In this document: in pieces, positions 3,407 to 52,383 of the stretch | How positions within the stretch are numbered: the stretch's first letter is position 1 | How the letters are laid out: each line of letters starts with the position of its first letter | From: an uncultured Candidatus Berkelbacteria bacterium | Lineage (GTDB): Bacteria; Patescibacteriota; UBA1384; UBA12157 | NCBI GenBank assembly: GCA_903877885.1 | Contig: CAIRFN010000004.1 | Span: 19,869 to 83,868, forward strand | Direction: 5' to 3' | DNA length: 64,000 nucleotides | Notes under the pieces: model-generated | What the model was told of the DNA's origin: nothing | The model's database searches: none | The model's input: the letters and a program-made list of their open reading frames with translations, nothing else | Made by a program: the position numbers and the translations under genes

Positions 3407-4684
3407 ATGTTAAATTACCAACTAACAACTTTAGATAATGGTTTAAGAGTAATTACGGCGCCGGTTACGAGTACAAAAGCGGTGACCGCCTTGGTTTTGT
3501 TTGGCGTTGGTAGTCGCTATGAAGACAAAACCGAAAACGGGATCTCGCACTTTTTGGAACATATGTTTTTTAAAGGCACCGAAAAACGACCAACCACTTT
3601 GGACATTTCTCGCGAACTTGACAGTGTTGGTGCTGGTTATAATGCCTATACCGGCGAAGAATATACCGGCTATTTTGTGCGCGTGCCTTCGGAACATTTT
3701 ACTTTGGGCTTTGATGTTTTAACTGATATGCTTTTGAACTCCAAATTCGATGCCGAAGAACTGGCTAAGGAAAAAGGCGTTATTATTGAAGAAATTAATA
3801 TGTATAATGATGATCCAAAAGCCAAAGTTGATTTGGTTGCCAGAGAATTAGTTTATCCAGATCAACCGCTGGGCCGAAATATTGCTGGTGAAAAAGATAT
3901 TATCAAAAATATGACGAGCGAGAAAATGGTGGCCTACAAAAATAAATTTTACACGCCGGAAAACATTGTCGTCGCCATTGCTGGTGGTAAAGACTCGGTT
4001 GATTGGTTAAAAGCGGTTGAAGAAAAATTTGGCAAATTACCAAAAACCCAAAAAAACGAGTTTGCAAAAGTTACCGAAGCCCAAACCGAACCGGCTGTCA
4101 AAATTTTTGAAAAGACAACCGATCAAGCCAATTTTATTTTAGGTTTTCGTTCAATCGAACGAACCGATGACCGCCGTCCGATTCTGAAAGTTTTAACTAA
4201 TTTAATGGGTCAAATGATGTCTAGCCGACTTTTTATTGAGGTTCGAGAAAAGCGGGGACTTTGCTATTACATCAATGCCGATCAATACGAATTTCAAGAT
4301 GCCGGGTTTTGGGCAGTTTCGGCTGGCGTTGATTTAAATCGAATTAAAGAGGCGATTAAGGTCATTTTAGCCGAAGTTGAAAAATTAAAAACAGATTTGA
4401 TTACCGACGAAGAATTAAGCCGCGCCCGCGAAAACTTAAAAGGTCATTTATATTTGAATTTGGAAGAATCAATGGCTGTCGCCGACTTTTTGGCTGAACA
4501 AGAATTATTATGGAATAAGATTGAAGATCCGGAAGTGGTGGCTGGTAGATACGAAAAAGTTACCCGTGAAGAAATTCGCCAAATGGCTCAAGAATTTTTT
4601 ATTCCAGCCAATTTGAATTTGGCCATCGTCGGTCCATACAAAGACGATGAAAAGTTTAAAGAAATATTAAAAAATTTTAAATAA
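3407..4684 (+). CDS. M16-family zinc metallopeptidase (insulinase/pitrilysin-like)
   Basis: Inverted zinc motif HFLEHMFFKG (HxxEH) and a downstream E. Size typical of bacterial M16B. Confidence 0.85.
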   Translation: MLNYQLTTLDNGLRVITAPVTSTKAVTALVLFGVGSRYEDKTENGISHFLEHMFFKGTEKRPTTLDISRELDSVGAGYNAYTGEEYTGYFVRVPSEHFTLGFDVLTDMLLNSKFDAEELAKEKGVIIEEINMYNDDPKAKVDLVARELVYPDQPLGRNIAGEKDIIKNMTSEKMVAYKNKFYTPENIVVAIAGGKDSVDWLKAVEEKFGKLPKTQKNEFAKVTEAQTEPAVKIFEKTTDQANFILGFRSIERTDDRRPILKVLTNLMGQMMSSRLFIEVREKRGLCYYINADQYEFQDAGFWAVSAGVDLNRIKEAIKVILAEVEKLKTDLITDEELSRARENLKGHLYLNLEESMAVADFLAEQELLWNKIEDPEVVAGRYEKVTREEIRQMAQEFFIPANLNLAIVGPYKDDEKFKEILKNFK

Positions 4685-5303: not shown

Positions 5304-5903
5304 TTGTTTTACACGATTGAGGGAATCGATGGGGCAGGTTGCGGCGTGGTACGCCGCGCTTTAGAAAAACGTTTAACCGAAGAAAAAATTCCGTTTGAAA
5401 GTTTAAAATATCCAGTACCAAGTCTTCCTTTCGGTCGCGATATTTACGATTTTTTGGACTCTAAAATCGAAATGACTTCCGAAACGCAATTTATTGCCTT
5501 TATTGGTCAAATGGTGGCCGAAAAAGCCCGAATTCAAAAATTACGCCAAAAAGTGGTTATTGTTGACCGCTATTTACCTTGCACTTTGGTTTTTCAAGGC
5601 GCCAACGGTTTCCCTTTAAAAAAAGGTTTAGCCATGGCGAAATTGTTTGAACTGGAAAAGCCAGATCGAATTTTTTATTTACAACTTCCTTGGAAAGTCG
5701 CCTTTGAGCGTAAAAACAAAGAGGCGAGAGCCAGCGACCGTCACGAAAAAGATAAAAAATTATACCAAAAAACCAGCGAATTGTATGACGAGTTATCAAA
5801 CAAAAAAGTTTTCGGCTCTTGGCAAATAATCGATGCGACCCAAACACCGGAACAAGAAGCTGAAGAAATTTTAAAAAGAATTAAAAAAGACATAAAAAAA
5901 TAA
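5304..5903 (+). CDS. tmk: Thymidylate kinase. Probable TTG start at 5304; the ORF track starts at 5274.
   Basis: P-loop region YTIEGIDGAGCG and DRYLPCTLVFQG (cf. DRY..S.AYQG). RBS ggagg 5 nt upstream of the TTG. Confidence 0.7.
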   Translation: MFYTIEGIDGAGCGVVRRALEKRLTEEKIPFESLKYPVPSLPFGRDIYDFLDSKIEMTSETQFIAFIGQMVAEKARIQKLRQKVVIVDRYLPCTLVFQGANGFPLKKGLAMAKLFELEKPDRIFYLQLPWKVAFERKNKEARASDRHEKDKKLYQKTSELYDELSNKKVFGSWQIIDATQTPEQEAEEILKRIKKDIKK

Positions 5904-5904
5904 A

Positions 5905-6999
5905 ATGATTCAAACCTATATTGCTCCAATTATTATCGCGGCGCTAATGACTTGCGGTTTAACTTATTCAGTTAAATTAATCGCCGAACATTTGGGCATT
6001 TTTGATCAGCCTAATGAACGACGGGTTAATACTAAAGCGATTCCGCGTTTAGGTGGTGTGGCGATTGTGATTGCCTTTTTGCTCACAACTTTAGGTTATG
6101 TTTTGGCTAGCCATCGCTTGGAATTCGATCACACCAAATTTTATATTTTTGATTTGAAATTAGTTGGGGTAATTTTCGGCGCGCTCGTTCTGCTGATTGT
6201 CGGTATTTTTGATGATATTCGTGGCATTAAACCGATTTTTAAACTGCTTTGGCATATTGTCGCGGCGACGATTGTGGTAGTTTTTGGTTTGACCATAAAT
6301 TATATTCGGCTGCCTGCTGGGCTCCATATCGAATTATCCAACTGGGTGATTCCGTTCCAACTTTTTCATCAGACTTTTAATTTTGTGGTTTGGGCGGATT
6401 TACTGACAGTTTTCTGGATTGTGTTGATGATTAATACTTTAAATTTTCTCGATGGACTTGACGGCCTGGCTAGTGGCGTTTCAGTTATCGCCGCCATTAG
6501 TATTTTCTTTTTGAGTTTATCTTTGGGACAAAACGCCGCCGCTTTATTAGCTTTGATTTTTGCCGGTTCCGTCTTGGGTTTTATTCCCTGGAATTTTAAT
6601 CCGGCCAAGATTTTTATGGGCGATTCTGGCAGTATGTTTTTAGGTTATCTACTCGGTGTTTTAGCCGTTATCTCTGGTGGAAAAGTGGCAACCGCTTTCT
6701 TAGTTTTAGGCATTCCGGTTTTGGATGTTGGTTGGGTCGCTTTGCGCCGCATTTTTACCGGTCATTCACCATTTCAGGCTGATAAATTTCATTTGCATCA
6801 TCGACTTTTAGCCGCGGGTTTGACCCAGCGTCAAGCGGTTTTAATGCTTTATTTAATTTCGGCCATTTTTGGCGGCATTGCCATCTTTAGCCAAACCGCT
6901 GGCAAAATCCAAGCGATTATCTGGTTACTTTTAGTCATGGGCGCTTTAGCAATTTTGTTAATTGTATTAGAATGGAAGAAGCGAGGTAAAAGTGTATAA
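5905..6999 (+). CDS. Polyprenyl-phosphate N-acetylhexosamine-1-phosphate transferase (GT4 MraY/WecA family)
   Basis: IFMGDSGSMFLGY, DDIRGI and the HLHH motif. 10 or more TM helices. Confidence 0.8.
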   Translation: MIQTYIAPIIIAALMTCGLTYSVKLIAEHLGIFDQPNERRVNTKAIPRLGGVAIVIAFLLTTLGYVLASHRLEFDHTKFYIFDLKLVGVIFGALVLLIVGIFDDIRGIKPIFKLLWHIVAATIVVVFGLTINYIRLPAGLHIELSNWVIPFQLFHQTFNFVVWADLLTVFWIVLMINTLNFLDGLDGLASGVSVIAAISIFFLSLSLGQNAAALLALIFAGSVLGFIPWNFNPAKIFMGDSGSMFLGYLLGVLAVISGGKVATAFLVLGIPVLDVGWVALRRIFTGHSPFQADKFHLHHRLLAAGLTQRQAVLMLYLISAIFGGIAIFSQTAGKIQAIIWLLLVMGALAILLIVLEWKKRGKSV

Positions 7000-35896: not shown

Positions 35897-36193
35897 ATGA
35901 CAGCGAAAAAGAAAGGTACGGGGTCAATGACCGTAGCCGAAGCCGGTCGCAAGGGCGGCACGAAGACTGCCAAAACTCATGGTCACGAGTTCTATGAGGA
36001 AATCGGCCGCAAGGGCGGGGTTAAAGTCAGGGATGAATATGGCGTGGCGTTTTACGAGGAGATTGGCCATAAAGGTGGTCAGAAGGTCAAGGATCTGATC
36101 GAAATGGGCAAGCGTGCTCAAGCCGCCGAAACCGAAGCCGATCGACGTCTGGCCGAGCGGGCCAAGGCTATCAAAAAGGGAGTCGGGAAATGA
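35897..36193 (+). CDS. KGG-repeat stress-induced protein (YciG/GsiB-like), GC-rich
   Basis: Repeats of EAG(R)KGG...K..FYEEIG(R/H)KGG. Confidence 0.75.
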   Translation: MTAKKKGTGSMTVAEAGRKGGTKTAKTHGHEFYEEIGRKGGVKVRDEYGVAFYEEIGHKGGQKVKDLIEMGKRAQAAETEADRRLAERAKAIKKGVGK

Positions 36194-36390
36194 GCGAGAA
36201 GAAATCTGGTGGTCAAATGACTGTGGCCGAAGCGGGTCGCCGCGGCGGCAATGCAGTCAAGAAAAAATACGGCACGGCGTTTTACGAGGAAATTGGCCAT
36301 AAAGGCGGTCAAAAGGTTAAACGTCTGATCGAACAGGCCAAACGAATTGAGGCCGCCGAGAAGCGCGCCGCCGAAACGCCGTGGGACTAA
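36190..36390 (+). CDS. KGG-repeat stress-induced protein, tandem paralogue
   Basis: Same repeat architecture. ATGA overlap with the upstream gene. Terminator at about 36404-36430. Confidence 0.75.
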   Translation: MSEKKSGGQMTVAEAGRRGGNAVKKKYGTAFYEEIGHKGGQKVKRLIEQAKRIEAAEKRAAETPWD

Positions 36391-39941: not shown

Positions 39942-40018
39942 TCCCCTGTAGCTCAGTTGGATAGAGCATCTGTCTTCGGAACAGAGTGTCGCAGGTTCGA
40001 ATCCTGTCAGGGGAACCA
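39942..40018 (+). tRNA. tRNA-Arg (anticodon TCG), CCA encoded
   Basis: Manual fold: acceptor tcccctg/cagggga, D-arm tagctcagttggatagagca, anticodon stem tctgt/acaga, loop ctTCGga. Confidence 0.75.
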
Positions 40019-40057: not shown

Positions 40058-40134
40058 TCCCGGGTAGCTCAGTTGGATAGAGCATGAGATTGCGGATCTC
40101 AAGGTCGTGGGTTCGAGTCCCATCTCGGGAACCA
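40058..40134 (+). tRNA. tRNA-Arg (anticodon GCG), CCA encoded. G34 rather than the usual A34.
   Basis: Same scaffold as the neighbouring tRNA-Arg. Anticodon stem tgaga/tctca, loop ttGCGga. Confidence 0.65.
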
Positions 40135-40223: not shown

Positions 40224-41255
40224 TTATAAATTTATACTCCAGATTTTAGTATCAGGGGTTTGTTCAAAACCAAGCCTGTAGAATGCTGGGTCCATAATCA
40301 TCCAAGTCGGACATTGTTTGATATCGACAGATAATTGTTTGCAACAAAGATTTTTAGCCTCAGAAATTGCAGCCTCAGCCATTTTAATGGTTGTGTCATA
40401 ATCGTCAAGAATACCTTGAACGGCCATAGTTTGGATTATCAAAGTTTCAGTTTCTACTGAATGGACAAGTTTCATACACCCATGAATATCACTATCAATA
40501 GCGTAAACGTAGAATTCATTAATATTTGTGCTGATATATTTTATGTCAGCACGATGATAAAAACTATCTTGAGCTAAAATTCTGATGATTTCAGCAATAT
40601 CGTCATTATTTGCTTTACGGCAATTTTGATAAATATTAGCAGAAATCATTGTTCCGACTCCTTCTGTCGAAAATAGTTCTTTGATTAAACTATTTTCTCG
40701 ATGACGGTGTCCAGAGATAAAATGGACCCTCTTAATTCCTTCTTCGCAGGCTTTTATAGCTAGAAGGAGTTTATGTTTCATAAAACCTTTGATAACTGAT
40801 GTGTCGGCAATATTTTTAGCACTAGCTATATCAAGCTGATGTAGAAGCGCTTGTTCGTTATTGTATATGCCATCACTGGTAGTGATAAAAATTAATTTAT
40901 CCGCTCCTATCTTGATAGCTAATTCATAAGCGCGTACATCAGCGTCTTCATCTGCGCCTTTGATTAAAATAGGTATTATTCCATGTCCCATTTCAGTAAA
41001 ACCAGCCGAGAAGTCATATAGTAGACTCATGTCATCGATAACACTACCCAGCGGCTCGATTCCGGCCAAATAGATTAGCATATTTGTTGTCTCGGCTATC
41101 AAAATAATGTCTTTAGCTAAACCATTTTTTAATATATTTTCGCAGACATTGTGGTCGATTTTGATGACAACTTTCTGTCCATCAAAATGCTTAGCATAGA
41201 GTAGTACATTCCTGATTAAACGGCTCGTATTCATGATTTTCCTCCTTTGCAACAA
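40224..41255 (-). CDS. N-acetylglutamate-synthase-like protein: amino-acid-kinase fold fused to a C-terminal GNAT acetyltransferase domain
   Basis: AAK-fold blocks (VVIKIDHN..., IPILIKGADEDADVRAYELAIKIGADKLIFITTSDGIY, GVGTMIS) and a C-terminal GNAT-like ~130 aa. The Gly-rich phosphate loop is degenerate. Confidence 0.5.
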   Translation of the reverse strand: MLQRRKIMNTSRLIRNVLLYAKHFDGQKVVIKIDHNVCENILKNGLAKDIILIAETTNMLIYLAGIEPLGSVIDDMSLLYDFSAGFTEMGHGIIPILIKGADEDADVRAYELAIKIGADKLIFITTSDGIYNNEQALLHQLDIASAKNIADTSVIKGFMKHKLLLAIKACEEGIKRVHFISGHRHRENSLIKELFSTEGVGTMISANIYQNCRKANNDDIAEIIRILAQDSFYHRADIKYISTNINEFYVYAIDSDIHGCMKLVHSVETETLIIQTMAVQGILDDYDTTIKMAEAAISEAKNLCCKQLSVDIKQCPTWMIMDPAFYRLGFEQTPDTKIWSINL

Positions 41256-42442
41256 AAATGACGAATTAGCTCGACATAATGAGTAATGTGGATCGGATCA
41301 AGGAAATTTTCATCAATAGATTCGAAGTCTTGATGCGCATCCCTAATCGATCCCGGCCCTAATATTATTGTATCAGCGCCAGTTCTATGACTAAATATAG
41401 TGGCTTCAGAGCTATAGGAAACTCCTTCGGCTTTTCTATCAAAAATTGTTTCAGCTGCTTCAACCAAATTACATGATTTACTTGTCTCAAGTGGTAGAGT
41501 TGGCGAAGTATTGAACTCAACTTGAATATTTATTCTCTTGTCTTCACTCCGATTCCGATTAATATTATCCGCTATTTGTTCGATAGTAGATTCTAAAAGA
41601 TTGAAAATCGTACCACTATCCTGTCCGTGCATAAAACGTATATCACATTCCAGTTTTATTTCACCAGGAATGATATTTTTAGCTGCATTTGCCCCCATGA
41701 CAATATTACCAATATTCATAGTGGCGTAGTTAGGATCATAATTAACATCTTTAAATTTTCTTAGATGTAGTCCAAATTTTTCAAGTCCGTCAATTACTTG
41801 TGGCAAAGCAATTGTTATTACGTTTACTAAATCTCGAGGGTCAGAACTGTGACTACAACCTTTATTACTTTTCCGCGTGATATTTATTCGGAAGAACATA
41901 TAGCCTTTCTGAAAACGCATCGGGACAAGTAAAGTTGGTTCGCCAACGATAATATTTTTTGCGGGAATAAATTCTTTTTCTGAAAGAAGAAGTTTAACAC
42001 CTTTACAACCTAGTTCTTCGGTATGCGTAAAATATAAAGCCAGACTCTCTGATAGGTCTTCATCTGGAATAGAACTAGCTGCTAGCATGGCCATAGCCAA
42101 AAAAAGTTTCATATCAGTTATGCCTAAACCTTGATATCTTTTTCCTTTTTTAGCGACTGTAAAAACATTGTCTTTCCAGCTTTTGGGATTATAAGAAACA
42201 GTATCAGTATGACCAGATAAAGCTAAGATTGGTTTAGCACTTGGTCCTTTAACGGCCACAAGGTTTGTTTTTTTGCCATTGCCGAAAGAAGTGATTTTGA
42301 ATCTATTTTTTTCACAAAATTCTGCAATGTATTCCAGTGTTAATTTATAACCAGTACCGTCATCAGAAACTACACACTCTTTACTGATAGTGTTAAAACT
42401 TACTAATCTGGTGACCAGATCGAGTAAAGTCAGAGTTTTCAT
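41231..42442 (-). CDS. M20-family metallohydrolase (ArgE/DapE-like deacylase)
   Basis: ALSGHTDTV and GITDMK metal-binding motifs. It overlaps the downstream NAGS-like gene, so it is an operon. Confidence 0.75.
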   Translation of the reverse strand: MKTLTLLDLVTRLVSFNTISKECVVSDDGTGYKLTLEYIAEFCEKNRFKITSFGNGKKTNLVAVKGPSAKPILALSGHTDTVSYNPKSWKDNVFTVAKKGKRYQGLGITDMKLFLAMAMLAASSIPDEDLSESLALYFTHTEELGCKGVKLLLSEKEFIPAKNIIVGEPTLLVPMRFQKGYMFFRINITRKSNKGCSHSSDPRDLVNVITIALPQVIDGLEKFGLHLRKFKDVNYDPNYATMNIGNIVMGANAAKNIIPGEIKLECDIRFMHGQDSGTIFNLLESTIEQIADNINRNRSEDKRINIQVEFNTSPTLPLETSKSCNLVEAAETIFDRKAEGVSYSSEATIFSHRTGADTIILGPGSIRDAHQDFESIDENFLDPIHITHYVELIRHFCCKGGKS

Positions 42443-42505: not shown

Positions 42506-42611
42506 AATAATAAATCAACTAAAATATTTAGGCATCTTGACATTAGTTGAATATAATGTTATTAATAAGGCCAGCGTACCTTAACTTATCAATAAAAAGG
42601 GGGATTGTCCG

Positions 42612-44462
42612 ATGACAAGTATTGTGACTCTGCGACAACATATTACCGACATGGTAATTACGATGCTCGAAAAGGTTTATAAGAAAAAACCCGAGGTTGT
42701 TAACCTCTCATTGGCTACCGATTTGCGATTCGGCGATTTTCAGATTGCTTGTTTTCAATTTGCTAAGTTCGCAAAGACAAGTCCTGTCGAAATTGCCAAA
42801 GTAATTGCACTGGAATTGGGTAGTTCACCAGACTGGATTTTTTCAAAAGTCGAAGCTATTGGTCCGTATGTTAACCTTACAATTAAGCCAAATCTCTTAT
42901 TTAGTTTGGTTTGTCTTGATTTAGATCAACATGATTTGTTTAGTCAAATATCAATTGGTCATGGTCAGAAGGTAATGGTTGAATATCTCTCGCCAAATAC
43001 AAATAAACCGCTTCATCTCGGTCATGTTCGTAACGGCGTGTTAGGTACGGCATTATCTAATATTTTGACATTAGTGGGTTACAATTTAATCAAAGCTAAT
43101 TTGATCAATGACCGTGGTATCCATATCTGTAAATCAATGTTAGCTTGGCAACGTTGGGGAAATGGCGAGACGCCTGAAACAAATAGTAAAAAAGGCGATC
43201 ACTTAGTTGGCGATTATTATGTTAAATTTGATACTGAGTTTAAAAAGCAACTTTATTCATTAAGAGATGATCGACCAGAATTGAGTGGAAAAACTGATAA
43301 AGAAATTGATGAACTCGCTGACGATTATTTTTTCGAAACTGAAATCGGTCAAGCAGCGCAAGCAATGTTGCGGCATTGGGAGGATGGGAATCAAGAAATC
43401 CGTGATATTTGGAAGATGATGAATCAATGGGTTTACGCTGGTTTTAACGAAACCTACGAGCAATATGGCTTTTCTTTTGATCGTTTTTATTATGAAAATC
43501 AAACTTATTTACTCGGTAAAGATATCGTTCAATCTGGTATTGACCGCGGAATATTTGTTACTGAAGAGAACGGTCAAGTTGTGGCATTATTACCCAAAGA
43601 TGGGTTTGGCTTAGAATCGGGTGGTCACCAAAAACGTATTACCGTGTTGCGCCCTGATGGCACTAGTGTTTATATGACACAGGATATTGGAACTGCTCAG
43701 TTAAAATATGATGATTACGGTTTAGATCGTTCAATTTATATTGTTGGTTCGGAGCAGAACTATCATTTCCAATGTCTATTTCATATTCTAAAGTCACTTG
43801 GATTTAATTGGGCACACGGTTGTTTTCATCTTTCATACGGTATGGTTTATTTACCGCATGGTCGGATGAAATCACGAGAGGGTACAGTAGTTGATGCCGA
43901 TAATTTATTGGAAGAAGTGATTAAGCTTGCAGAGGTGCAAGTTAGAAGTCACAACGAAAATTTACCTTGTCGTGAGATTCTGAAACGGGCACACGATATC
44001 GCTTTAGCAGCCATTAAGTTCTTTTTGTTACGTGTTGGCTCTAGTGTCGATATTCATTTTGATCCAGAAGAATCACTTTCGTTTGAAGGTAATACTGGCC
44101 CGTATTGTCAATATGCTTTTGCTCGAGCCTGTTCTGTAATGGAAAAAGCTGCAAATTTAAGTTTAATACAAACGCCAAATTTCAGTTTATTAGGTAATGC
44201 TGAAGAACGAGCATTGGCTCAAAAGATTATCGGTTTCGCCGATAGTGTTAAAGCGTCTGCTGAAGATATGAGTCCTTCGAAAGTGGCAAACTATATCTTC
44301 GATTTAGCTCGAGCCTTTAATCTGTTCTACGAAAAGCATAAGATTATCGATAGTGACAATATTGAATTAACCACTGCAAGATTTGCTTTGGTTCGTTCAG
44401 TGGCTATGGTGTTAAAACGAGGACTGTTATTATTGGGAATTCCGGTTTTGGAAAATATGTAA
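42612..44462 (+). CDS. argS: Arginyl-tRNA synthetase
   Basis: Class I HIGH-region PLHLGHVRNG, MKSREG (KMSKS variant), N-terminal Arg_tRNA_synt_N-like domain, DALR-like C-terminus. Confidence 0.9.
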   Translation: MTSIVTLRQHITDMVITMLEKVYKKKPEVVNLSLATDLRFGDFQIACFQFAKFAKTSPVEIAKVIALELGSSPDWIFSKVEAIGPYVNLTIKPNLLFSLVCLDLDQHDLFSQISIGHGQKVMVEYLSPNTNKPLHLGHVRNGVLGTALSNILTLVGYNLIKANLINDRGIHICKSMLAWQRWGNGETPETNSKKGDHLVGDYYVKFDTEFKKQLYSLRDDRPELSGKTDKEIDELADDYFFETEIGQAAQAMLRHWEDGNQEIRDIWKMMNQWVYAGFNETYEQYGFSFDRFYYENQTYLLGKDIVQSGIDRGIFVTEENGQVVALLPKDGFGLESGGHQKRITVLRPDGTSVYMTQDIGTAQLKYDDYGLDRSIYIVGSEQNYHFQCLFHILKSLGFNWAHGCFHLSYGMVYLPHGRMKSREGTVVDADNLLEEVIKLAEVQVRSHNENLPCREILKRAHDIALAAIKFFLLRVGSSVDIHFDPEESLSFEGNTGPYCQYAFARACSVMEKAANLSLIQTPNFSLLGNAEERALAQKIIGFADSVKASAEDMSPSKVANYIFDLARAFNLFYEKHKIIDSDNIELTTARFALVRSVAMVLKRGLLLLGIPVLENM

Positions 44463-44559: not shown

Positions 44560-44637
44560 TCCCGTGTAGCTCAGTTCGGATAGAGCAACTGCCTTCTAAG
44601 CAGTAGGTCACCGGTTCAAATCCGGTCACGGGAACCA
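44560..44637 (+). tRNA. tRNA-Arg (anticodon TCT), CCA encoded
   Basis: Acceptor tcccgtg/cacggga, D-arm tagctcagttcggatagagca, anticodon stem actgc/gcagt, loop ctTCTaa. Confidence 0.75.
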
Positions 44638-44737: not shown

Positions 44738-45094
44738 ATGATTGTAATGGGTTGCAATGAGGAAACTGTACCTCTGCAGATGGTCAACTATCTGCTTCAG
44801 GTCTTTCGACAGTTTGGCAAAGTTGGTATTGCCGCTAACAGTATTAATTCTCAAAGTATCGCGATTCGAAGTATGCAATTACTTTGCGAAGAAATTTCGC
44901 AAGAAGATCGGCACAAAATAGAATTCTACGTACTTGATGAAGACATTAATGTGTTAGGAGAAAGTAAACTTGCTGGTTTAGAAGCTGTACCGATTACTGA
45001 CATTGATAAAGCGATGAATCGATTCAACCAAACTCATAACGGATTTCATTATATTTGTCTCGTTGCAAAAAAATGTTTAGACTACCAAATCTGA
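44738..45094 (+). CDS. Hypothetical small protein. ATG at 44738 after RBS aaggagg.
   Basis: ORF followed by a terminator (ccgggctaacacccgg+T7 at about 45100-45125). Confidence 0.35.
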   Translation: MIVMGCNEETVPLQMVNYLLQVFRQFGKVGIAANSINSQSIAIRSMQLLCEEISQEDRHKIEFYVLDEDINVLGESKLAGLEAVPITDIDKAMNRFNQTHNGFHYICLVAKKCLDYQI

Positions 45095-45129
45095 ATTTCC
45101 GGGCTAACACCCGGTTTTTTTATTCTCTA

Positions 45130-45290
45130 TTGACAAGATGAATAAAACAATTTATATTAAAATTACGAATATGAATATAATCCGTCGTCGAAATTTATTA
45201 AATCGCTTAAGGTTGCTTGATGGCAATTTGACTTAGTATTATCAAAAAAATCGAATTTCTATCAAGCGACCTTAAGCGAGGTCGTTTTTT
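45130..45290 (+). promoter_or_regulatory. Candidate transcription-attenuation leader: promoter, Arg-codon-rich leader peptide, and alternative antiterminator and terminator helices
   Basis: ttgaca 45130-35 and tatatt 45153-58. Segment 45204-45221 is complementary (18 bp, one G.U) to 45261-45278. The latter overlaps the terminator stem cgacc(45267-71)/ggtcg(45280-84) plus T6. Confidence 0.55.
45171..45236 (+). CDS. Putative leader peptide MNIIRRRNLLNRLRLLDGNLT (21 aa; 5 Arg codons including the cgt-cgt-cga tandem)
   Basis: An in-frame ATG at 45138 would extend it to 32 aa. Poor or no SD. It lies entirely within the attenuator-like leader. Confidence 0.4.
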   Translation: MNIIRRRNLLNRLRLLDGNLT

Positions 45291-45334
45291 GTATTCTCGG
45301 TACCTTACAACTTATGCGCAAAGGGGGAATGGTC

Positions 45335-46591
45335 ATGGCGAAGATATTTGAATGTCTAATCTGTGGTAATACAGTTTATGAAAGTGATATTTACACACAC
45401 AAAGCTGTACATCCTGGTTTAAAAAGCTATGGTTATATGTGGCCAAGCTATTATGAAGAAAACCCAAATCGGAATCTTCGGTTAGCTCCAATTCACCAGT
45501 CTACATTATTTGCTGAGGCTATCGGTGTAAGTGAAGTGTATATTCGTGACGAAGGCCAAAATCTTTCTGGTAGTATGAAAGATTATATCGTTGAAGAAGC
45601 AGTGAATTTAGGTATTGCTGACGGCGCCAATGTTTTTACAGTAGTTTCAAGCGGTAATCAAGCTTTTTCATTAGCTAAATACACGCAATTGGCTGGGAAA
45701 AAAGCTGTTTTGTTCGCACCAGAATCATCATCAAAGATTGGTATACTTTCTACTCTAGATAACGTTTTCATCTTAGCTGTAAAAGATGCCATCTTCGAAG
45801 ATGTATATCGTTTGGCAGCGGATCTAAACTTACCTGGCGTGTACAACGCCAATGTAACGAACGATTTATTGCTACCTGGTTTAGTTACAGTGAGTCGACA
45901 GATTATTGAGGCAGGGCTTAATATCGATTATGTTTTGTCTGGTGTTGGTAATGGTACATATTTGGCTGGCCTAACACTTGGCTTTATGAAGTATCGATAC
46001 GCTTTGCCAAAAATCATTCCAGTTGGGATGATGGGGGCTTTCCCAACTCAAGTCGCACTTGAAAACGGGATATCTTGTTATGAATATCAAGACTTTCAAG
46101 TTGATGAATCGATTATAGATGCGGCTGAAGGTTCGATTGCTATTGCTAGTTACAGTATGCCTCAGCTCATCCATGCTATCACTGTTTCCAATGGTTTTTG
46201 TCTTGGCGATTTACTTAATTCTGATTTGGCTACAGCCTATGATCTTTTGTATCAGGACAAAGCGTTGGTTGATGCAGGTGCTATTCCTGAACCAACAGGT
46301 ATAATGGGTTTAGCTGCGGCAATCAAATATCGCAACTGTTTTGGGTCAAAAAGTCGTTTACTTATCTCATTTACTGGTCATGGAGTCAAAGATTTAGAGG
46401 GAATTAAGCGACTTGTGCCAAATTTGTATGACGAATTGTCTGCGGCGGCTTTAGCTAGTCGTCCGGATTTATCTGTGTCCTTCGCGGAAATGGATATGTC
46501 CAAGATCAAGCTAATCGACAAAGAAATGTCAAAAACTGACATTGAGTCGATAGTGTATAACTGGCTTCGGAAAGAAGGGGGTAACTTATGA
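45335..46591 (+). CDS. PLP-dependent fold-type-II enzyme (threonine-synthase/Trp-synthase-beta-like) with an N-terminal C2H2-like zinc ribbon. ATG at 45335 is preferred.
   Basis: PLP-lysine region NLSGSMKDY and SSGNQAFSLAKY (cf. ThrC SSGNTA). N-terminus CLICGNTVYESDIYTHKAVH (C-x2-C-x12-H-x3-H). Confidence 0.65.
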   Translation: MAKIFECLICGNTVYESDIYTHKAVHPGLKSYGYMWPSYYEENPNRNLRLAPIHQSTLFAEAIGVSEVYIRDEGQNLSGSMKDYIVEEAVNLGIADGANVFTVVSSGNQAFSLAKYTQLAGKKAVLFAPESSSKIGILSTLDNVFILAVKDAIFEDVYRLAADLNLPGVYNANVTNDLLLPGLVTVSRQIIEAGLNIDYVLSGVGNGTYLAGLTLGFMKYRYALPKIIPVGMMGAFPTQVALENGISCYEYQDFQVDESIIDAAEGSIAIASYSMPQLIHAITVSNGFCLGDLLNSDLATAYDLLYQDKALVDAGAIPEPTGIMGLAAAIKYRNCFGSKSRLLISFTGHGVKDLEGIKRLVPNLYDELSAAALASRPDLSVSFAEMDMSKIKLIDKEMSKTDIESIVYNWLRKEGGNL

Positions 46592-47820
46592 AACGGATAA
46601 TCATCGACACTCAAAGCAACAGGCTTTTTCAAGGTATTGCTGCTGAACAAAATTATGATCAGCGAGGTGGACTTTGTCAAGTTGGAGAAGGTAATGTTGT
46701 CGTAACAACTAATCCTATCAATGTTGATTATTTGGATTATTGGCAAGAAGTCGGTTTTAGTTTGCCACATCTACTTACAGTTGGACCATTCGATCCTAGT
46801 TGTACAATTTCAGATTTAATTGTTCGTAATTTGGATGTCCAGACAGAAATTAAACGTTTAATTGATGGCTCAAATGCTCGTTTAGAATTCTTTTGTATTG
46901 AAGAATCTGAACGTAAGCTTGTTGAAACATTGGGCATCGAACCATATTGTAATATTGACGTTTCGATCAAACTTTCGAGAAAGCATAATTTTAAATCTTT
47001 ATGTGAAGAAATCGGTCTACCAACTCCAGAGTGGTTGGTTGGCAGAGATCGACGCGATCTCGCGAAGTATGGCAAAAAATTTCTGAGCGACTATTCTCAA
47101 CCATTTTTAGTAAAATCAGTTGATGGTACTGGTGGAATTTCTTGCGGCGGTATGGCATTAGTCAGAAATCAAGAGGAATTACTCCATCTTTGTAGTAATT
47201 CTGCTACGCTTGGTAACCATTTTATTTTGGAAAAGTTAATTCCTGATAAGGATGTTGAACTGTCGATTCATTGGCAGATAACTAAAGATTATGAATTAAT
47301 GGTTACTGATATTTTTTGTCAGCTTTCCGATAATTTTGCTTATGCTGGTGCTTGTGGTCCAGTCGACATTGCGCCGTCAATTAAAGATGAGATTATCTTA
47401 ACCTTAAAGGATATTTTCGCTCCAGCTTTGATTAAGGCGGGTGCTATTGGCTTCTTCTGTTGTGACCTGATCGTCGATAAATCTGGAAAAGTTTTTTGGA
47501 TTGACTTCAATCCGAGAAAAGGTGCAATCATCTATATTCATAGTATGGTTAGCCGTCTTTCCCAGAATGTTTTTGATAATAAGAGGCTCCATTTTTTTCA
47601 CCGGCATTGCCAGGCTGATAAAAATTTAAGCTTTTCTGAAGTGTATCAAAAAATCGGTCATCTTATGACACCAAGCGAAGATCCATTCGTAGTCATTACA
47701 AATCCTGGTTTGATTGAATATGGCTACGTTGATATCACTGGTATCTCTCATAATTCTGTTGATGAAGCACGTGAGTTTTTTGTCCAAGCCGAACAAACGA
47801 TAAAAAACACAGCGTGTTAA
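46588..47820 (+). CDS. ATP-grasp family ligase
   Basis: PTPEW, LVKSVDGTGGIS and FFCCDLIVDKSGKVFWIDFNPRKG (ATP-grasp C-domain pattern). ATGA coupling to the upstream gene. Confidence 0.6.
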   Translation: MKRIIIDTQSNRLFQGIAAEQNYDQRGGLCQVGEGNVVVTTNPINVDYLDYWQEVGFSLPHLLTVGPFDPSCTISDLIVRNLDVQTEIKRLIDGSNARLEFFCIEESERKLVETLGIEPYCNIDVSIKLSRKHNFKSLCEEIGLPTPEWLVGRDRRDLAKYGKKFLSDYSQPFLVKSVDGTGGISCGGMALVRNQEELLHLCSNSATLGNHFILEKLIPDKDVELSIHWQITKDYELMVTDIFCQLSDNFAYAGACGPVDIAPSIKDEIILTLKDIFAPALIKAGAIGFFCCDLIVDKSGKVFWIDFNPRKGAIIYIHSMVSRLSQNVFDNKRLHFFHRHCQADKNLSFSEVYQKIGHLMTPSEDPFVVITNPGLIEYGYVDITGISHNSVDEAREFFVQAEQTIKNTAC

Positions 47821-47923
47821 AAAGTTATTTCACAGGGTAATCCGCGTGATTACCCTTTTTAATTACTATTTAACACATAATTAAAAAATTTAGTTAAAGA
47901 ACTGAATATGGTAAAATTTTAAT

Positions 47924-49006
47924 ATGAAAATAAAATCGATTACGTTTAAAGAATTTAATTTAAAACTTTCAGAGCCGTTTAGCTACTATACGGCGACTTT
48001 AGAATGTCTTCCTTATGAAATTATAACAATAAAGACTGATAACGAGATCTTCGGATTTGGCGAAGCGGCTTTGGCTTGGGATGTAACTGGAGAAACACAA
48101 GAAGGAGCACTTGGTCTTTTTAAATATATTAAACCTTTGTTAATAAATCATAAACTGAATTCTATCGAAGATATTAAAGAAATGATGAAAAATATCGACC
48201 TAAATGTTCATGAGAACTCTGCCTTGAAATCAGGTATAGAATTTGCTCTTTTAGACGTTTTGGGAAAATTTAAAAACAAACCAGTTTACAAACTATTAGG
48301 TGGAAAAGAAAAAGAATTTGTTGTTGCTCAAAGAGTTTTTCCTTATAAAGAAAAACATTCCGATGATCTTCAACAAAAAATTACTTTAAGCCTTCAAAAC
48401 GGCGCAGAAATCATTAAATTTAAAGCAGGAGAAAATTCAGAGATAGATTACCAAATTATCGAAAAAGTTGTTAACTTTTTTCCGACAATAAAATTAGTCT
48501 TAGATGTCAACCAAGGTTGGAAAAATTTCTTGAATGCTTGGCCAATAATTAAAAAATTGGAAAAATTTAAAAAAAATATTTTATGGATTGAACAACCGAT
48601 ATTTTCAAGTGATTATGAAGGGCTAGCTGAACTGAGTAAGAAAAGCGAAATTTTGATTATGGCTGACGAAAGTTGTCATAATCTACTTGATTTGAAAAAT
48701 CTTTACCTAAACAAATCAGTCAAACTAATTAATATTAAATTAGCAAAATGCGGTGGGATTCTCCCAGCGATGGAAATGGTTAAGTTTTGTGAAGAAAAAG
48801 ATATAAAATATATGTTAGGTGATATGATCAATTCCCCTTTAGGGACTGCTGCCAATCTTCAGATGGCTACATTAGGAAATTTCATTAGTTACGATCTGAC
48901 ACTCAATAATAAAATTGAGTCTGATCCGACTTCTGGTCTAAAAATTGATGGTTATAAATTCTATATACCACAAACATCTGGCATAGGTGTAAGCTTAAAG
49001 AATTGA
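47924..49006 (+). CDS. Enolase-superfamily enzyme of the MR/MLE subgroup (dipeptide epimerase / o-succinylbenzoate-synthase-like)
   Basis: KFKAGE (KxK), LVLDVNQGW, LWIEQP, IMADES, NIKLAKCGG. These are the canonical metal ligands and catalytic lysines. Confidence 0.8.
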   Translation: MKIKSITFKEFNLKLSEPFSYYTATLECLPYEIITIKTDNEIFGFGEAALAWDVTGETQEGALGLFKYIKPLLINHKLNSIEDIKEMMKNIDLNVHENSALKSGIEFALLDVLGKFKNKPVYKLLGGKEKEFVVAQRVFPYKEKHSDDLQQKITLSLQNGAEIIKFKAGENSEIDYQIIEKVVNFFPTIKLVLDVNQGWKNFLNAWPIIKKLEKFKKNILWIEQPIFSSDYEGLAELSKKSEILIMADESCHNLLDLKNLYLNKSVKLINIKLAKCGGILPAMEMVKFCEEKDIKYMLGDMINSPLGTAANLQMATLGNFISYDLTLNNKIESDPTSGLKIDGYKFYIPQTSGIGVSLKN

Positions 49007-49099: not shown

Positions 49100-50167
49100 A
49101 TGAGTTTGTCCAACACATTTAGAGAATTAGTAGAAATTGATAGTCCATCTGGCCAAGAGCAGGCAGTGGCTAAATATTTGGAAATTTGGCTGACTAGTCA
49201 AAATTTTGAATATTTTAAGGATGATATTGGTAACATTTTGGCTTTCCGATCTGGAAGTGGCGAACCGTTACTTTTATGTGCACATATGGACGTGGTAGAT
49301 CCTTGTTTAGGGGTTAAGCCATCGTTTATCAACGGTGTAGTTAAAAGTGATGGCACTACTGTTCTTGGCGCTGATAATAAAGCATCAATTGCTGCAATTA
49401 TTAAGGGGGTTGAAGATTATTTGGCGCAAACAGGTGAGCCAAGAGCAATCGAGATTCTTTTCGCTGTCAAGGAAGAAACTGGCGGTGGTGTAGAATTCAT
49501 GGACTTCTCTAAAATTAAGTCAAAACAAGGAATTATATTTGACTTAATTAAGCCGATTGGCACAATCGCTATTGCCTCACCATATATTTACAATTTTCAC
49601 ATTAAATTTACTGGCAAATCTTCTCATGCTAGTCGACCGGATGAAGGGAAAAGTGCACTTAAACCGGCGGCGAAATTGATTACTAGTGCCGATGATGGGT
49701 TTTTAGATAATGGTTTAACAACTATTAATTTCGGAAAAATAGAAGCTGGTACTGGTATTAATATTATACCAGAAACAGCAACTATTCATGGCGAAGTTCG
49801 CAGTTTTAAAAAAGATTTATTTGAAGCACATTTGGAAGCAATAGAGAAAATGGCTAAAAAATGTGCTAGTGAAGATGGCGTAAAAGTAGACTTTACCACG
49901 GACGGCCGTTGTGCCGGTTATGAGTTTCCAGAAGATGATACATTTATAAAAAAAATTAGCGCGGTTTTAGCTAAGAATGGTCATAAAATTGTTTTTTATA
50001 AAACATCTGGCATAAGTGATTCCAATCCGCTTGTTGAAGCCGGTATTAAAGTGGTGACTTTAGGTGACGGTATTACAAAAGCTCATACAGTCGAAGAAGA
50101 AATCAGCCTTGAATCGCTCGAAAGTATGCGAGCATTAGTTTTTGATTTTCTTCAAAAATTAGATTAG
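49100..50167 (+). CDS. M20-family peptidase (PepT/ArgE-like)
   Basis: LLLCAHMDVVD, GADNKASIAAI and VKEETGG metal- and catalysis-binding motifs. Confidence 0.75.
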   Translation: MSLSNTFRELVEIDSPSGQEQAVAKYLEIWLTSQNFEYFKDDIGNILAFRSGSGEPLLLCAHMDVVDPCLGVKPSFINGVVKSDGTTVLGADNKASIAAIIKGVEDYLAQTGEPRAIEILFAVKEETGGGVEFMDFSKIKSKQGIIFDLIKPIGTIAIASPYIYNFHIKFTGKSSHASRPDEGKSALKPAAKLITSADDGFLDNGLTTINFGKIEAGTGINIIPETATIHGEVRSFKKDLFEAHLEAIEKMAKKCASEDGVKVDFTTDGRCAGYEFPEDDTFIKKISAVLAKNGHKIVFYKTSGISDSNPLVEAGIKVVTLGDGITKAHTVEEEISLESLESMRALVFDFLQKLD

Positions 50168-50293: not shown

Positions 50294-50770
50294 ATGATAA
50301 TAAATGTATCTCAAGGTTTGGGTACTGGCAAAACTGAACTTTCTGCTTTTGATAAAGCATTGTATGAAGCAGGTGTTGCTAATTATAATCTTGTTCGTCT
50401 GTCGTCAGTCATTCCAGTTGGCGCTGAAGTAAAAATAAATCAACTTAGTGATAATGCTCGTAACGAATTTGGTTATAAATTATTTTTAGTTTATGCTGAA
50501 CAACGTGAATCTGAAATTGGCAAAGAAGCTTGGGCGGGAGTTGGTTGGGTTCAAACCGAAGACGGTCGAGGGCTATTTGTTGAGCATGAAGGCTCGAGTG
50601 AAAAAGAAGTTCGTGGTTTAATTAAAAATAGTTTGACGGATATGGTCAAATATCGAAAAGATTATAAATTTGGCGAAATTAATTATTCGGTTTGTGGTAT
50701 ACGTTGTGAAGACCAGCCAGTCTGCGCTTTTATGGCCGCTGTTTATCAAAGTCAAAGCTGGGATAAATAG
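50294..50770 (+). CDS. pdaD: Pyruvoyl-dependent arginine decarboxylase
   Basis: SAFDKALYEAGVANYNLVRLSSVIP (Ser-Ser self-cleavage site) and CAFMAAVYQ closely track archaeal PdaD. 158 aa. Confidence 0.9.
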   Translation: MIINVSQGLGTGKTELSAFDKALYEAGVANYNLVRLSSVIPVGAEVKINQLSDNARNEFGYKLFLVYAEQRESEIGKEAWAGVGWVQTEDGRGLFVEHEGSSEKEVRGLIKNSLTDMVKYRKDYKFGEINYSVCGIRCEDQPVCAFMAAVYQSQSWDK

Positions 50771-51105
50771 TTACAGGACTAATTCGTTGGAATAGAATAT
50801 TTTACACCGTTCTAATTTATTTTAGATAAATAATTGTGCTAAAGACTTAAATAAAAAGTATGGGAGCTTCGTTCCGCGGAATTTTTAAATACGGGAATAT
50901 AACAGGTATTTAAAAATATAACAATAAGTGTACTATGGTCGTAATAAAAGTATAATGATAAGATAAGTTTTTAGTTAAAATTAAACTATGTCCCTTGACT
51001 TTTGGGTAAATTAAAGGTAAAATCATCTCAACTATTGAATGGTTGAGTCGAGTAACTTTGACTTAACTTTTCATGGAACTGAACAAATTAGAGGAGGGAA
51101 GGATA

Positions 51106-52383
51106 ATGAGTAATCTCGCTACGGCTAATAGGAATGGTGTGTTAACTCGCAATAAAGTTACTGATATGGGGCGTGGTGTCACCAGATTTCTGAAAGATTC
51201 TGGTTATTACCCGCATATTAGCAAAGTAGATTCCACGGTGGACGGTGAGGTCACAATTAATGGTAAGGCTTGCGTAAATTTTTATTCTAATTCATTCTTG
51301 GGTCTCACCAATCATCCGAAAATTATCGAAGCAAAGAAGGCAGCATTAGACAAATATGGCAATGGAAGCGGATCATCAAGAATGATCACGACGCAAAGTA
51401 TTTTGTATGAGTTAGAAGAAAGGATTGCGGCCTTCAAAAATCGTGAATCAGCCATTGTATTTTCTGCCGGCATGCTTGTTAATTGGGGTGTTATTCCTGC
51501 TTTAGCAAATTCATCACTAAAACCTCTAATAAGAGAGCTTGGCGGTGAAGACTTGTTTGCTCCAGTTTCACTCTTTCTTGACAAGTTTAATCATTCATGT
51601 ATTCATGATGGGGCCGCATTGTCTATGTGTAATTTTTGGGCTGGTCGTGCAAAAGTTCATATGTATGAGCATATGGATATGGCCGATCTCAGGAAAGAAT
51701 TGGAAAACGACAAAAATGAATATAAGATTATCATAACAGATGGAGTTTTCTCGATTCATGGCCATATAGCACCGTTAAATGAAATACTATTACTGGCGCA
51801 AGAGTTTAATGCTGCTATTTATGTCGATGATGCTCATGGTACTGGTGTTCTCGGGCCAAATGGCAGAGGAACAGCCGAAGAGCTAGGGATTGACTCAGAA
51901 ATCGATATTCCAGTTGGCACTTTCTCTAAAGCGTTTGGGTGTGCTGGTGGATTTGTTGTAGGCGATAAAGATTTTTGTGATTATCTGCGTGTTGCTTCCA
52001 GGACATATGTCTATCAAACGGCAATGCCACCAGAAAATGCAGGTGGTTTAATTGCAGCAATTGATATTGCAGAGAAGGAGCCATGGCGTCGTCGGCAAGT
52101 GCTAGCTAATGCAACAAAGGTCCGAAATGAATTTCAACGTTTGGGATTTAGTACTCTCGGTACAAAATTTCATATCGTTCCGATTCTAATTGAGGATGTT
52201 GAAGTCGCAACGAAGATTGCAGACGATTTGCTTGATCAGGGAGTTATTACAGGTTGCGTAAAGCCACCCGTTGCAACACAACCAATTATTCGTTGCAATA
52301 TGATGGCAACACACACAGAAGAGCATCTTGATCGTTTAGTCTCAATCATTGAGACAAGTGCGAAAAAGTATGGTCTGATCTAG
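51106..52383 (+). CDS. Alpha-oxoamine synthase family PLP enzyme (BioF/Kbl/serine-palmitoyltransferase-like). ATG at 51106 is preferred.
   Basis: YVDDAHGTGVLGPNGRG and PLP-lysine region GTFSKAFGCAGGFV. Confidence 0.85.
   Translation: MSNLATANRNGVLTRNKVTDMGRGVTRFLKDSGYYPHISKVDSTVDGEVTINGKACVNFYSNSFLGLTNHPKIIEAKKAALDKYGNGSGSSRMITTQSILYELEERIAAFKNRESAIVFSAGMLVNWGVIPALANSSLKPLIRELGGEDLFAPVSLFLDKFNHSCIHDGAALSMCNFWAGRAKVHMYEHMDMADLRKELENDKNEYKIIITDGVFSIHGHIAPLNEILLLAQEFNAAIYVDDAHGTGVLGPNGRGTAEELGIDSEIDIPVGTFSKAFGCAGGFVVGDKDFCDYLRVASRTYVYQTAMPPENAGGLIAAIDIAEKEPWRRRQVLANATKVRNEFQRLGFSTLGTKFHIVPILIEDVEVATKIADDLLDQGVITGCVKPPVATQPIIRCNMMATHTEEHLDRLVSIIETSAKKYGLI

Follow-up and report, generated by a model that had tools for sequence, protein, structure and literature searches.

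We examined a 64,000-nucleotide stretch of an uncultured Candidatus Berkelbacteria bacterium (contig CAIRFN010000004.1; hereafter the window, with positions counted from its first letter). The contig derives from a metagenome assembly (ENA ERZ18625277). All named homologues of the DnaE encoded in the window belong to Patescibacteria (Berkelbacteria, Falkowbacteria, Parcubacteria and the "Patescibacteria group"); the argS homologues gave an ambiguous placement. The window holds a putative arginine-responsive attenuator immediately upstream of an operon that starts with a pyridoxal phosphate (PLP) enzyme gene. A sequence-only reading of the same DNA had proposed at this site a near-consensus promoter, a short open reading frame (ORF) with consecutive Arg codons, and an antiterminator helix overlapping an intrinsic terminator, in a locus that also carries argS and three tRNA-Arg genes. 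The promoter with its 17-nt spacer, the ORF running from ATG to TAG, the Arg codons CGT CGT CGA plus CGC and AGG, and argS with tRNA-Arg genes of anticodons TCG, GCG and TCT are all present where it had placed them (Table 1). Upstream of the promoter, the terminator of a 120-aa gene insulates the leader as a separate transcription unit. The transcription start is predicted near 45164-45168, which would give a 5' untranslated region (UTR) of about 3-7 nt.

Table 1. Features of the window around the putative attenuator, and Arg runs and model matches of the leaders at related loci (L numbers). R1, covariance model of the leader.
Locus	Feature	Position	Strand	Details
Window	tRNA-Arg(TCG)	39942-40018	+	
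Window	tRNA-Arg(GCG)	40058-40134	+	
Window	ArgA-like acetyltransferase	40224-41255	-	
Window	ArgE-like deacylase	41231-42442	-	
Window	argS (arginyl-tRNA synthetase)	42612-44462	+	
Window	tRNA-Arg(TCT)	44560-44637	+	
Window	Intrinsic terminator of upstream 120-aa gene	45099-45121	+	CCGGG-loop-CCCGG (45099-45114) plus T7; terminator scan
Window	Sigma-70-type promoter	45130-45158	+	TTGACA 45130-45135, 17-nt spacer, TATATT 45153-45158; 11/12 match
Window	Leader ORF	45171-45236	+	21 codons plus TAG (45234-45236); encodes MNIIRRRNLLNRLRLLDGNLT
Window	Candidate regulatory Arg run	45183-45191	+	CGT CGT CGA; codon reading
Window	Additional leader Arg codons	45204-45206, 45210-45212	+	CGC, AGG; codon reading
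Window	Antiterminator 5' arm	45203-45234	+	Starts 14 nt past the first base of the last Arg codon
Window	Antiterminator 3' arm	45248-45279	+	Last 16 nt (45264-45279) include the whole terminator 5' arm (45264-45273)
Window	Intrinsic terminator	45264-45290	+	AAGCGACCUU-AAGC-GAGGUCGUUU; 10 pairs, -12.5 kcal/mol; stem 45264-45287; T6 45285-45290
Window	5' UTR of first structural gene	45300-45329	+	Motif GTACCTTACAACTTAT; Shine-Dalgarno AAGGGGGAA at 45321-45329
Window	Fold-type-II PLP enzyme	45335-46591	+	
Window	ATP-grasp ligase	46588-47820	+	
Window	MR/MLE-family racemase or epimerase	47924-49006	+	
Window	M20 hydrolase	49100-50167	+	
Window	Pyruvoyl arginine decarboxylase	50294-50770	+	
L008	Arg run			CGT CGT CGA
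L012	Arg run			CGT CGT CGT
L018	Arg run			CGT CCT CGT CGT CGT
L031	Arg run			CGT GCG CGT CGT
L001	Arg run			AGA AGA CGC
L015	Arg run			AGG AGG CGC AGA AGA
L017	Arg run			CGG AGA TAC AGA AGA
L030	Arg run			AGG CGA AGA
L039	Arg run			AGA CGG AAT AGG AGG
L054	R1 match, E = 1.6e-4			Peptide MIKMQTISLRRRRNLKTMSGVVC; CGG CGT CGT CGT (RRRR); ATG 6 nt after TATAGT; offset 17
L052	R1 match, E = 3.7e-4			Peptide MLIKNKEITRRRRRATHNV...; AGA AGG AGG AGG CGC (RRRRR); offset 14
L055	R1 match, E = 1.4e-4			5' end cut by contig end, peptide not recoverable; upstream of argS
L053	No R1 match			PLP gene 59 nt after another gene

Arginine accounts for 5 of the 21 leader codons, against 3.7% of the codons in the genes of the window. 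By standard wobble rules, the three tRNA-Arg isoacceptors encoded in the locus would together read all five. The window nevertheless has 84 runs of at least three Arg codons in its six frames, a density of about 0.66 per kb per strand. Because lone Arg triplets are not rare, the significance of the element rests on comparative data rather than on this single locus.

The sequence-only reading had described an 18-bp helix between 45204-45221 and 45261-45278. These 18-nt arms are complementary with a single U.G pair, for a chance expectation of 0.04 matches per window; the extent of the helix was underestimated, with real arms of 45203-45234 and 45248-45279 that form the longest inverted repeat of the 64-kb window. 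Likewise, the proposed terminator has the expected CGACC/GGUCG core and T6 tract on a stem that is larger than described, reaching 10 pairs. The proposed overlap is complete, as the antiterminator 3' arm contains the entire terminator 5' arm. The leader folds at -42 kcal/mol compared with -22.2 +/- 3.3 kcal/mol for shuffled sequences (z = -6.05; none of 200 shuffles equally stable), and the antiterminator helix by itself has -38.8 kcal/mol. Without constraint, the fold gives the antiterminator only and leaves 45171-45202 in no stable structure, with no upstream 1:2 (pause or anti-antiterminator) hairpin. The arms have no second copy within the window, where the element is single-copy.

Searching the whole window against Rfam (4227 families) at the gathering threshold matched only tRNAs, and at E values up to 10 the region 44900-45500 gave only spurious microRNA-hairpin matches to the long helix. 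On this basis we reject the known leader, T-box and riboswitch families.

Leaders homologous to that of the window are found at 11 other metagenomic loci, upstream of the same PLP-enzyme cassette. Each of the nine found first (L008, L012, L001, L015, L017, L018, L030, L039 and L031) possesses a promoter, an ATG ORF, an Arg run, a hairpin and a T-tract terminator of its own. Of 10 leaders scanned, 8 carry exactly TTGACA as their -35 hexamer, and by eye so do L052 and L054. The nearest relative, L008, encodes a PLP enzyme 61% identical to that of the window, and its leader consists of TTGACA-17-TATATT, a 21-codon ORF (MKLMRRRNLLIHLGLLDSSLS) with an identical CGT CGT CGA, the helix and the terminator. 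The contigs L003-L007 are 100% identical across the leader, hence uninformative.

The enrichment of Arg codons in orthologous leaders, which had been suggested as a check, is borne out. For 37 PALP loci whose available upstream DNA spans 230 nt or more, we scanned for ORFs that start with ATG, comprise 8-45 codons and include at least 3 Arg in 5 codons. On the coding strand 11 of the 37 loci were flagged, comprising 10 real leaders and one spurious case inside argS (L048). The corresponding figures are 2 for the opposite strand and 2.0 +/- 1.35 for dinucleotide shuffles. Apart from Arg, no amino acid was enriched in the same scan of upstream ORFs. Every one of the 12 complete leaders contains an ORF of 15-34 codons starting with ATG, with 3-5 Arg codons within 5 codons. 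Across these loci arginine is kept while its spelling switches between CGN and AGR, which are unrelated codon families (Table 1), pointing to the amino acid, rather than an RNA motif, as what is under selection.

This codon switching bears on an alternative in which the terminator/antiterminator switch is real, but an RNA-binding protein acting in trans, a small ligand or an uncharged tRNA serves as its sensor. Such a factor would bind the antiterminator 5' arm in the style of TRAP, PyrR, a T-box or a riboswitch, and the ORF would be incidental. An RNA-level binding site would not tolerate CGN/AGR switching within the Arg run, however, and the ATG ORF is kept in 12 of 12 leaders despite indels, with Arg the only enriched amino acid. 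The failure of any Rfam family, T-box included, to match even at the permissive threshold and an Arg-to-helix spacing that fits a ribosome footprint (see below) also speak against a trans-acting factor. Three observations would suit it: the window ORF has no Shine-Dalgarno sequence, some stretches of the antiterminator keep their sequence as well as their pairing (an example is UUGAGGUUG...CAAGCGACC, where one U.G pair is retained in nine of ten leaders), and a conserved motif lies downstream of the terminator. On balance we regard a sensor of this kind as quite improbable.

Outside the Arg run, the leader peptides are unrelated between subgroups (e.g. MNKITQILNNRRRPISA, MNLVFTTTKIIIRRRRRTSDG..., MNIIRRRNLLNRL...), and between 4 and 14 residues separate the Arg run from the N-terminus, depending on the leader. 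To our knowledge, arrest peptides require specific sequences, and the lack of a common motif beyond the Arg run argues against a sequence-specific arrest peptide. A broader version of this idea is that the ORF is translated and does control the operon, with a signal other than Arg-tRNA charging: the poly-Arg peptide or its codons would stall ribosomes intrinsically, or upon free arginine, ornithine or general translation capacity, and the leader would act in the manner of arrest peptides such as SpeFL and TnaC, or as a growth-rate sensor. Ribosomes are indeed known to be slowed by poly-basic tracts and by clusters of AGG/AGA. Pausing at the Arg codons of rbfL occurs in vitro even under optimal conditions (PMC13009471), and in the orf34 leader of Salmonella, effects of ornithine are combined with those of arginine (PMC6386406). 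Against these precedents stand the missing peptide motif, the variable position of the Arg run, and the conserved partner genes, argS and Arg-related enzymes, which fit starvation sensing. We therefore hold a signal unrelated to charging to be improbable.

We folded a ten-leader MAFFT alignment (A3) with RNAalifold, and the consensus structure of the ten leaders is the antiterminator. In this helix 89% of cells are paired across the ten loci, with compensatory changes at 16 of 22 pairs. On each of five measures, not one of 500 shuffled versions did as well, and sliding the partners by 1-3 columns reduced pairing to 35-53%. One U.G pair, kept in 9 of the 10 sequences, appears to correspond to U45214.G45268 in the window. 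G45268 also pairs with C45283 in the terminator, and this shared base is a plausible means of tuning the balance between the two structures. The covariance model scores 116 bits on the + strand versus 36 bits on the - strand. Together with the retained G.U pairs, this asymmetry points to a structure in the + strand RNA rather than in the DNA, and a DNA-level palindromic operator is disfavored on the same grounds.

Four loci (L052-L055) were fetched after the covariance model R1 had been built and thus served as an out-of-sample test. Three of them match the model (Table 1). In L055 the attenuator copy occupies positions 1-101, argS begins at 203, and the PLP/ATP-grasp/racemase/M20 genes follow 50 nt after argS. 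The position of this copy ahead of argS suggests that in at least one lineage the attenuator would govern the cognate synthetase gene too. Over 46 sources, the covariance model matches only in front of the cassette, with no second copy in the window or elsewhere; a dispersed repeat or mobile hairpin, similar to repetitive extragenic palindromes (REP) or miniature inverted-repeat transposable elements (MITE), is ruled out, arms and model being single-copy. No leader was found upstream of argS in L048 or L010, where argS abuts the cassette, and the region upstream of argS in the window has a promoter and a short UTR without leader ORF or terminator.

The window likewise contains no second Arg leader, since its other intergenic-looking Arg runs (35883 and 36366) lie inside two small KGG-type genes. 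Recognized by eye only, these tandem genes (35898-36390) code for peptides that resemble KGG-repeat stress proteins (...GRKGG...YEEIGRKGG...); their GC content is visibly above that of the neighboring DNA, and they account for the out-of-frame Arg runs there. Elsewhere, L013 has a weak model match (2850-2930, E = 0.046) with a TTG-start ORF that has only two adjacent Arg codons and a terminator lacking a clean T tract, and may represent a decaying attenuator copy in a genome of 56% GC.

The position of the ribosome relative to the two hairpins was modeled by masking the 5' part of each leader as ribosome-covered, with a footprint extending 12 nt past the first base of the A-site codon. With CGA in the A site, the leading edge is predicted at 45201 and the antiterminator 5' arm starts 2 nt beyond it. 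From the first base of the last Arg codon to the first paired antiterminator base, the distance is 13-17 nt in all 12 complete leaders (14 in the window), a spacing that, under the footprint used in the model, matches the ribosome. In silico, the antiterminator folds in 12 of 12 complete leaders when the last Arg codon is in the A site, and the terminator alone folds in 12 of 12 when the stop codon is. The antiterminator is always the more stable structure in these leaders (-13.9 to -38.8 kcal/mol, against -7.4 to -19.9 kcal/mol for the terminator). Its 3' arm overlaps the terminator 5' arm by 6-11 nt in every case, and the stop codon lies 46-63 nt from the end of the T tract. None of the 12 has a hairpin upstream of the antiterminator. 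The sequence-only reading had proposed that a ribosome stalled at the Arg codons frees the antiterminator arm and that a ribosome at the stop codon masks it. The constrained folds agree with both statements in all 12 leaders, including the window, where the helix wins when its 5' arm is free and only the terminator is left when a ribosome sits at the stop.

Such geometry would be needless for a free-standing gene, which is the essence of a further alternative: that nothing here is conditionally regulated. The leader would then be a small gene (for a protein or a small RNA) with its own terminator, the Arg run belonging to a basic small peptide with a function of its own, or else a constitutive partial terminator with a stabilizing hairpin. 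Terminated attenuator RNAs and leader peptides do act in trans, as rnTrpL and peTrpL demonstrate (PMC6614838, PMC7298713), and at three related loci the terminator is followed by another promoter-like site, as discussed below. However, the helix always overlaps the terminator 5' arm and starts one footprint past the Arg run, and every copy found precedes the cassette or argS. In the window, moreover, the 44 nt that separate the terminator from the PLP gene at 45335 showed no promoter-like site, which makes the operon dependent on readthrough. These 44 nt are unstructured. We judge the absence of any conditional regulation to be very improbable.

One rejected explanation concerns the codons themselves. 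AGGAGG-type Arg runs could act as internal Shine-Dalgarno sequences for tiny downstream ORFs, which is possible in L015, L017 and L052. As a general explanation it fails, because it leaves the CGN-type leaders, the window included, unaccounted for.

Taken together, the conservation of the leader, the switching between codon families, the covariation, the footprint-matched geometry and the out-of-sample matches support the interpretation that the element is a ribosome-mediated leader-peptide transcription attenuator reading the supply of charged tRNA-Arg, and from these comparative sequence data we consider this likely. We infer the transcription start, translation of the ORF, coupling of transcription to translation, the response to arginine and a role of the operon in supplying or salvaging L-arginine.

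According to the proposed mechanism, transcription would begin slightly upstream of the AUG at 45171, by a few nucleotides, with a ribosome loading at or near the 5' end. When Arg-tRNA is plentiful, this ribosome would pass CGU CGU CGA, enter the antiterminator 5' arm and reach the stop codon, where it would cover 45203 to about 45246 and block the antiterminator. The terminator stem and its U6 tract would then fold, and the transcript would end at about 45290. When Arg-tRNA is scarce, the ribosome would stall once an Arg codon occupies the A site, its leading edge reaching no further than 45201. The antiterminator would form and sequester the terminator 5' arm, allowing RNA polymerase to read into the PLP-enzyme/ATP-grasp/racemase/M20 operon. 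Unlike the trp leader, a leader that is not translated at all is predicted to read through (default ON), given that no upstream 1:2 hairpin exists. The mechanism first suggested for this site, of the trp/his/leu type, is thus supported for the two-hairpin switch, the Arg run and the spacing, and departs from the trp type in the absence of the 1:2 hairpin.

How the leader ORF is initiated deserves separate consideration. All the structural genes have strong Shine-Dalgarno sequences; the window leader ORF has none, and its ATG lies 12 nt past the -10 box. At other loci the -10 hexamer is separated from the ATG by 6 nt (L012, L031 and L054), 7 nt (L001, L018 and L039) or 9 nt (L030). In L015, L017, L008 and L052 the distance is 17-24 nt, with a weak AGGA, AAGGA or AAGAG. 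The 6-9 nt spacing in 7 of 12 loci implies leaderless translation, and the simplest reading of these sequences is that the sensory ORFs are translated from leaderless or very short-leadered mRNAs. The missing Shine-Dalgarno sequence had been raised as a potential refutation; the observation is correct for the window, and the leaderless spacing at 7 of 12 loci means that it is not fatal to the model.

Several points count against the attenuator interpretation. The window ORF is neither cleanly leaderless nor led by a Shine-Dalgarno sequence, and its 12-nt spacing is the least clean case of all. There is no 1:2 or pause hairpin to synchronize the ribosome with the polymerase as in the trp leader. 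In addition, the antiterminator is far more stable than the terminator, so regulation would need prompt translation of nearly every transcript. A second promoter-like TTGAC(A/T) site follows the terminator in L001 (about 5890-5920), L054 (about 788-816) and L055 (about 104-132), and expression downstream may be only partly controlled by the attenuator there. The leader is missing from about two thirds of the cassette loci. The 12 leaders are homologous and not independent inventions, which means that the shuffle statistics overstate their independence. Finally, what ties the operon to arginine appears to be its gene neighborhood and one distant structural relative.

That neighborhood is itself conserved. 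Across about 45 related loci the gene order is PLP enzyme, ATP-grasp or GNAT, MR/MLE and M20, and argS very often lies directly upstream of the PLP-enzyme gene. A GNAT of about 225 aa takes the place of the 410-aa ATP-grasp of the window in L008 (4832-5521) and in L011, L012, L014, L031, L039, L043, L044 and L050, which looks like a non-orthologous replacement of the acylating step. The best solved relative of the racemase is 2p88/2p8b/2p8c (E = 1e-43), which we take to be Bacillus cereus BC0371. In work by Song and colleagues from 2007, the neighbors of BC0371 are reportedly a GNAT and an M20 hydrolase that jointly form a D-to-L conversion route for Arg and Lys. BC0371 is an N-succinyl-L-Arg racemase (PMC2948282). 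By analogy, the GNAT/ATP-grasp exchange would fit an acylate-racemize-deacylate logic of the cassette. In L053 (4358-6228), a methyltransferase and a protein with a YbaK-type tRNA_edit domain come after the PLP enzyme in place of the ligase and the racemase, and a pyruvoyl arginine decarboxylase precedes argS, a different Arg- and tRNA-linked context of the PLP enzyme. In the window, the three tRNA-Arg genes cluster with argS and lie close to the ArgE-like, ArgA-like and pyruvoyl arginine decarboxylase genes, which adds to an Arg-related context. Among these tRNA genes, the GCG anticodon is unusual, the usual bacterial form being ACG (inosine).

The PLP enzyme resolves to its fold class only. 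PDB sequence search and AlphaFold with Foldseek place it near threonine synthases (about 23% identity), CapA2, and serine and aspartate racemases. Its best full-length structural match is CapA2 (PDB 9k3c, TMq 0.72), and 4.5 kb downstream lies a gene of the BioF/serine-palmitoyltransferase family (51073-52383). CapA is a cysteate synthase, and the BioF/SPT-like CapB is the next enzyme of sulfonolipid (capnine) synthesis. The pairing of a CapA2-like and a BioF-like gene is probably coincidental, since no BioF-like gene was seen beside the cassette in the gene lists examined for the related loci.

Two noncoding features of the operon region are worth recording. A motif GTACCTTA(C)AACTTAT followed by AAAGGGGGA occurs in exactly two copies in the window (42576-42603 and 45300-45329), each about 35 nt before a start codon, that of argS and that of the PLP-enzyme gene. 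CCTTTAACAAT-like motifs are found elsewhere after the leader terminator or before argS: L008 (about 3541-3570), L015 (272), L052 (2937), L054 (853), L055 (about 170) and L010 (612). The regular expression for the CCTTAACAA-like UTR motif was too loose for statistics. As both UTRs are unstructured, the shared motif may be a protein or small-RNA site or a translation signal. The second feature is the second-longest inverted repeat of the window (47814-47876; 29-nt arms, 83% complementary, 5-nt loop). It sits in the gap between the ATP-grasp and racemase genes, within the putatively regulated operon, and could be an internal site of processing, stability or attenuation.

The textbook set of attenuated amino acids comprises Trp, His, Leu, Thr, Ile/Val and Phe; for arginine, the classical regulators are ArgR-type repressors or T-boxes. 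A conserved, covarying and terminator-based Arg attenuator would fill this gap, the Arg-codon leaders in the literature searched having other outputs. For Patescibacteria, whose genomes are tiny and which have few regulators and no genetics, it would moreover be a rare case of a predicted cis-regulatory mechanism, and the spacing data suggest that leaderless translation is used there for sensing. The element would label the argS-linked cassette, which is conserved across many candidate phyla radiation (CPR) contigs, as arginine-starvation-induced, and at about 160 bp it is a compact object on which to base a testable hypothesis of how auxotrophic episymbionts secure arginine.

Going further, we tentatively propose an arginine "ribulon" in Patescibacteria, although we think this extension is rather doubtful as it stands. 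A leaderless Arg attenuator would induce argS together with an acylate-racemize-deacylate cassette, salvaging L-arginine in organisms unable to make it. In this cassette the PLP enzyme would be joined by an acylating enzyme (ATP-grasp or GNAT), a racemase of N-acyl amino acids or dipeptides, and the M20 hydrolase, and its sources might include D-arginine and acylated or peptide-bound arginine. If true, this would be the first terminator-based Arg attenuator and would give a functional handle on an argS-linked pathway of many CPR genomes.

Arginine-sensing leaders of several other kinds are already known. The sequence-only reading was aware of no established Arg-codon attenuator in bacteria, which stands for terminator-based elements in the literature searched and not for leader ORFs that sense arginine, since rbfL and orf34/speF do so. 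A full-text literature search, with most subscription journals outside its reach, turned up neither an attenuator that responds to Arg through an intrinsic terminator and antiterminator nor any leader-peptide attenuator in Patescibacteria. In comparative surveys, arginine is controlled by T-boxes or repressors and not by attenuators; the actinobacterial survey found no RNA element for arginine operons, with T-boxes handling arginine elsewhere (PMC1262725).

The rbfL leader of Staphylococcus aureus (PMC13009471) shares with the element described here a short upstream ORF whose Arg codons pause ribosomes when arginine or tRNA-Arg is limiting. There, two rare AGA/AGG codons are involved, and the paused ribosome occludes the rbf ribosome-binding site, an output that is translational and repressive under Arg limitation. 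rbfL has no terminator or antiterminator, whereas our element is predicted to activate under Arg limitation. The orf34 (speFL) leader of Salmonella speF (PMC6386406) similarly has consecutive Arg codons at which pausing selects between mRNA structures. It differs in relying on Rho-dependent termination, unfolding of a ribosome-binding site and RNase G sensitivity in a long leader, in needing a conserved peptide domain, in regulating ornithine decarboxylase, and in having no intrinsic terminator overlapped by an antiterminator.

The Arg-specific T-box leaders of Firmicutes argS are also cis-acting RNAs that report tRNA-Arg charging through a terminator/antiterminator choice. They bind uncharged tRNA directly, however, span 200-300 nt with Stem I, specifier and T-box sequence, and do not need translation, compared with the leader of about 120 nt found here. 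The mycobacterial polycysteine attenuators (Canestrari et al., bioRxiv 10.1101/834739) come close in initiation and offer a precedent for the leaderless reading: a leaderless sensory short ORF is the first cistron, a homopolymeric codon tract is tied to the downstream operon, and the stalled ribosome remodels an RNA duplex. In that system the output is translational, with a downstream ribosome-binding site being unmasked, in place of the hairpin and U-tract terminator seen here. The sensed amino acid is Cys and not Arg, the phylum is another, and in our set the leaderless spacing holds for 7 of 12 loci, the window having 12 nt.

The closest mechanistic parallels are the classical trpL, hisL, leuL, thrL, pheL, ilvL and pheST attenuators. 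As in these, a promoter-proximal short ORF with a run of codons for one amino acid precedes an intrinsic terminator ahead of the structural genes, and an antiterminator would be freed by a stalled ribosome and blocked by one at the stop codon. The copy in L055 stands before the gene of the cognate aminoacyl-tRNA synthetase, similar to pheST or to trpS and leuS in Streptomyces (PMC1262725). In contrast to the classical set, the element described here is keyed to arginine, has no 1:2 hairpin, uses a leaderless or short-leadered ORF instead of one led by a Shine-Dalgarno sequence, occurs in Patescibacteria, and would control a cassette rather than a canonical biosynthetic operon. By mechanism it thus belongs with the classical attenuators, yet it is distinct from them because the 1:2 hairpin is missing and because the amino acid, the mode of initiation and the host differ.

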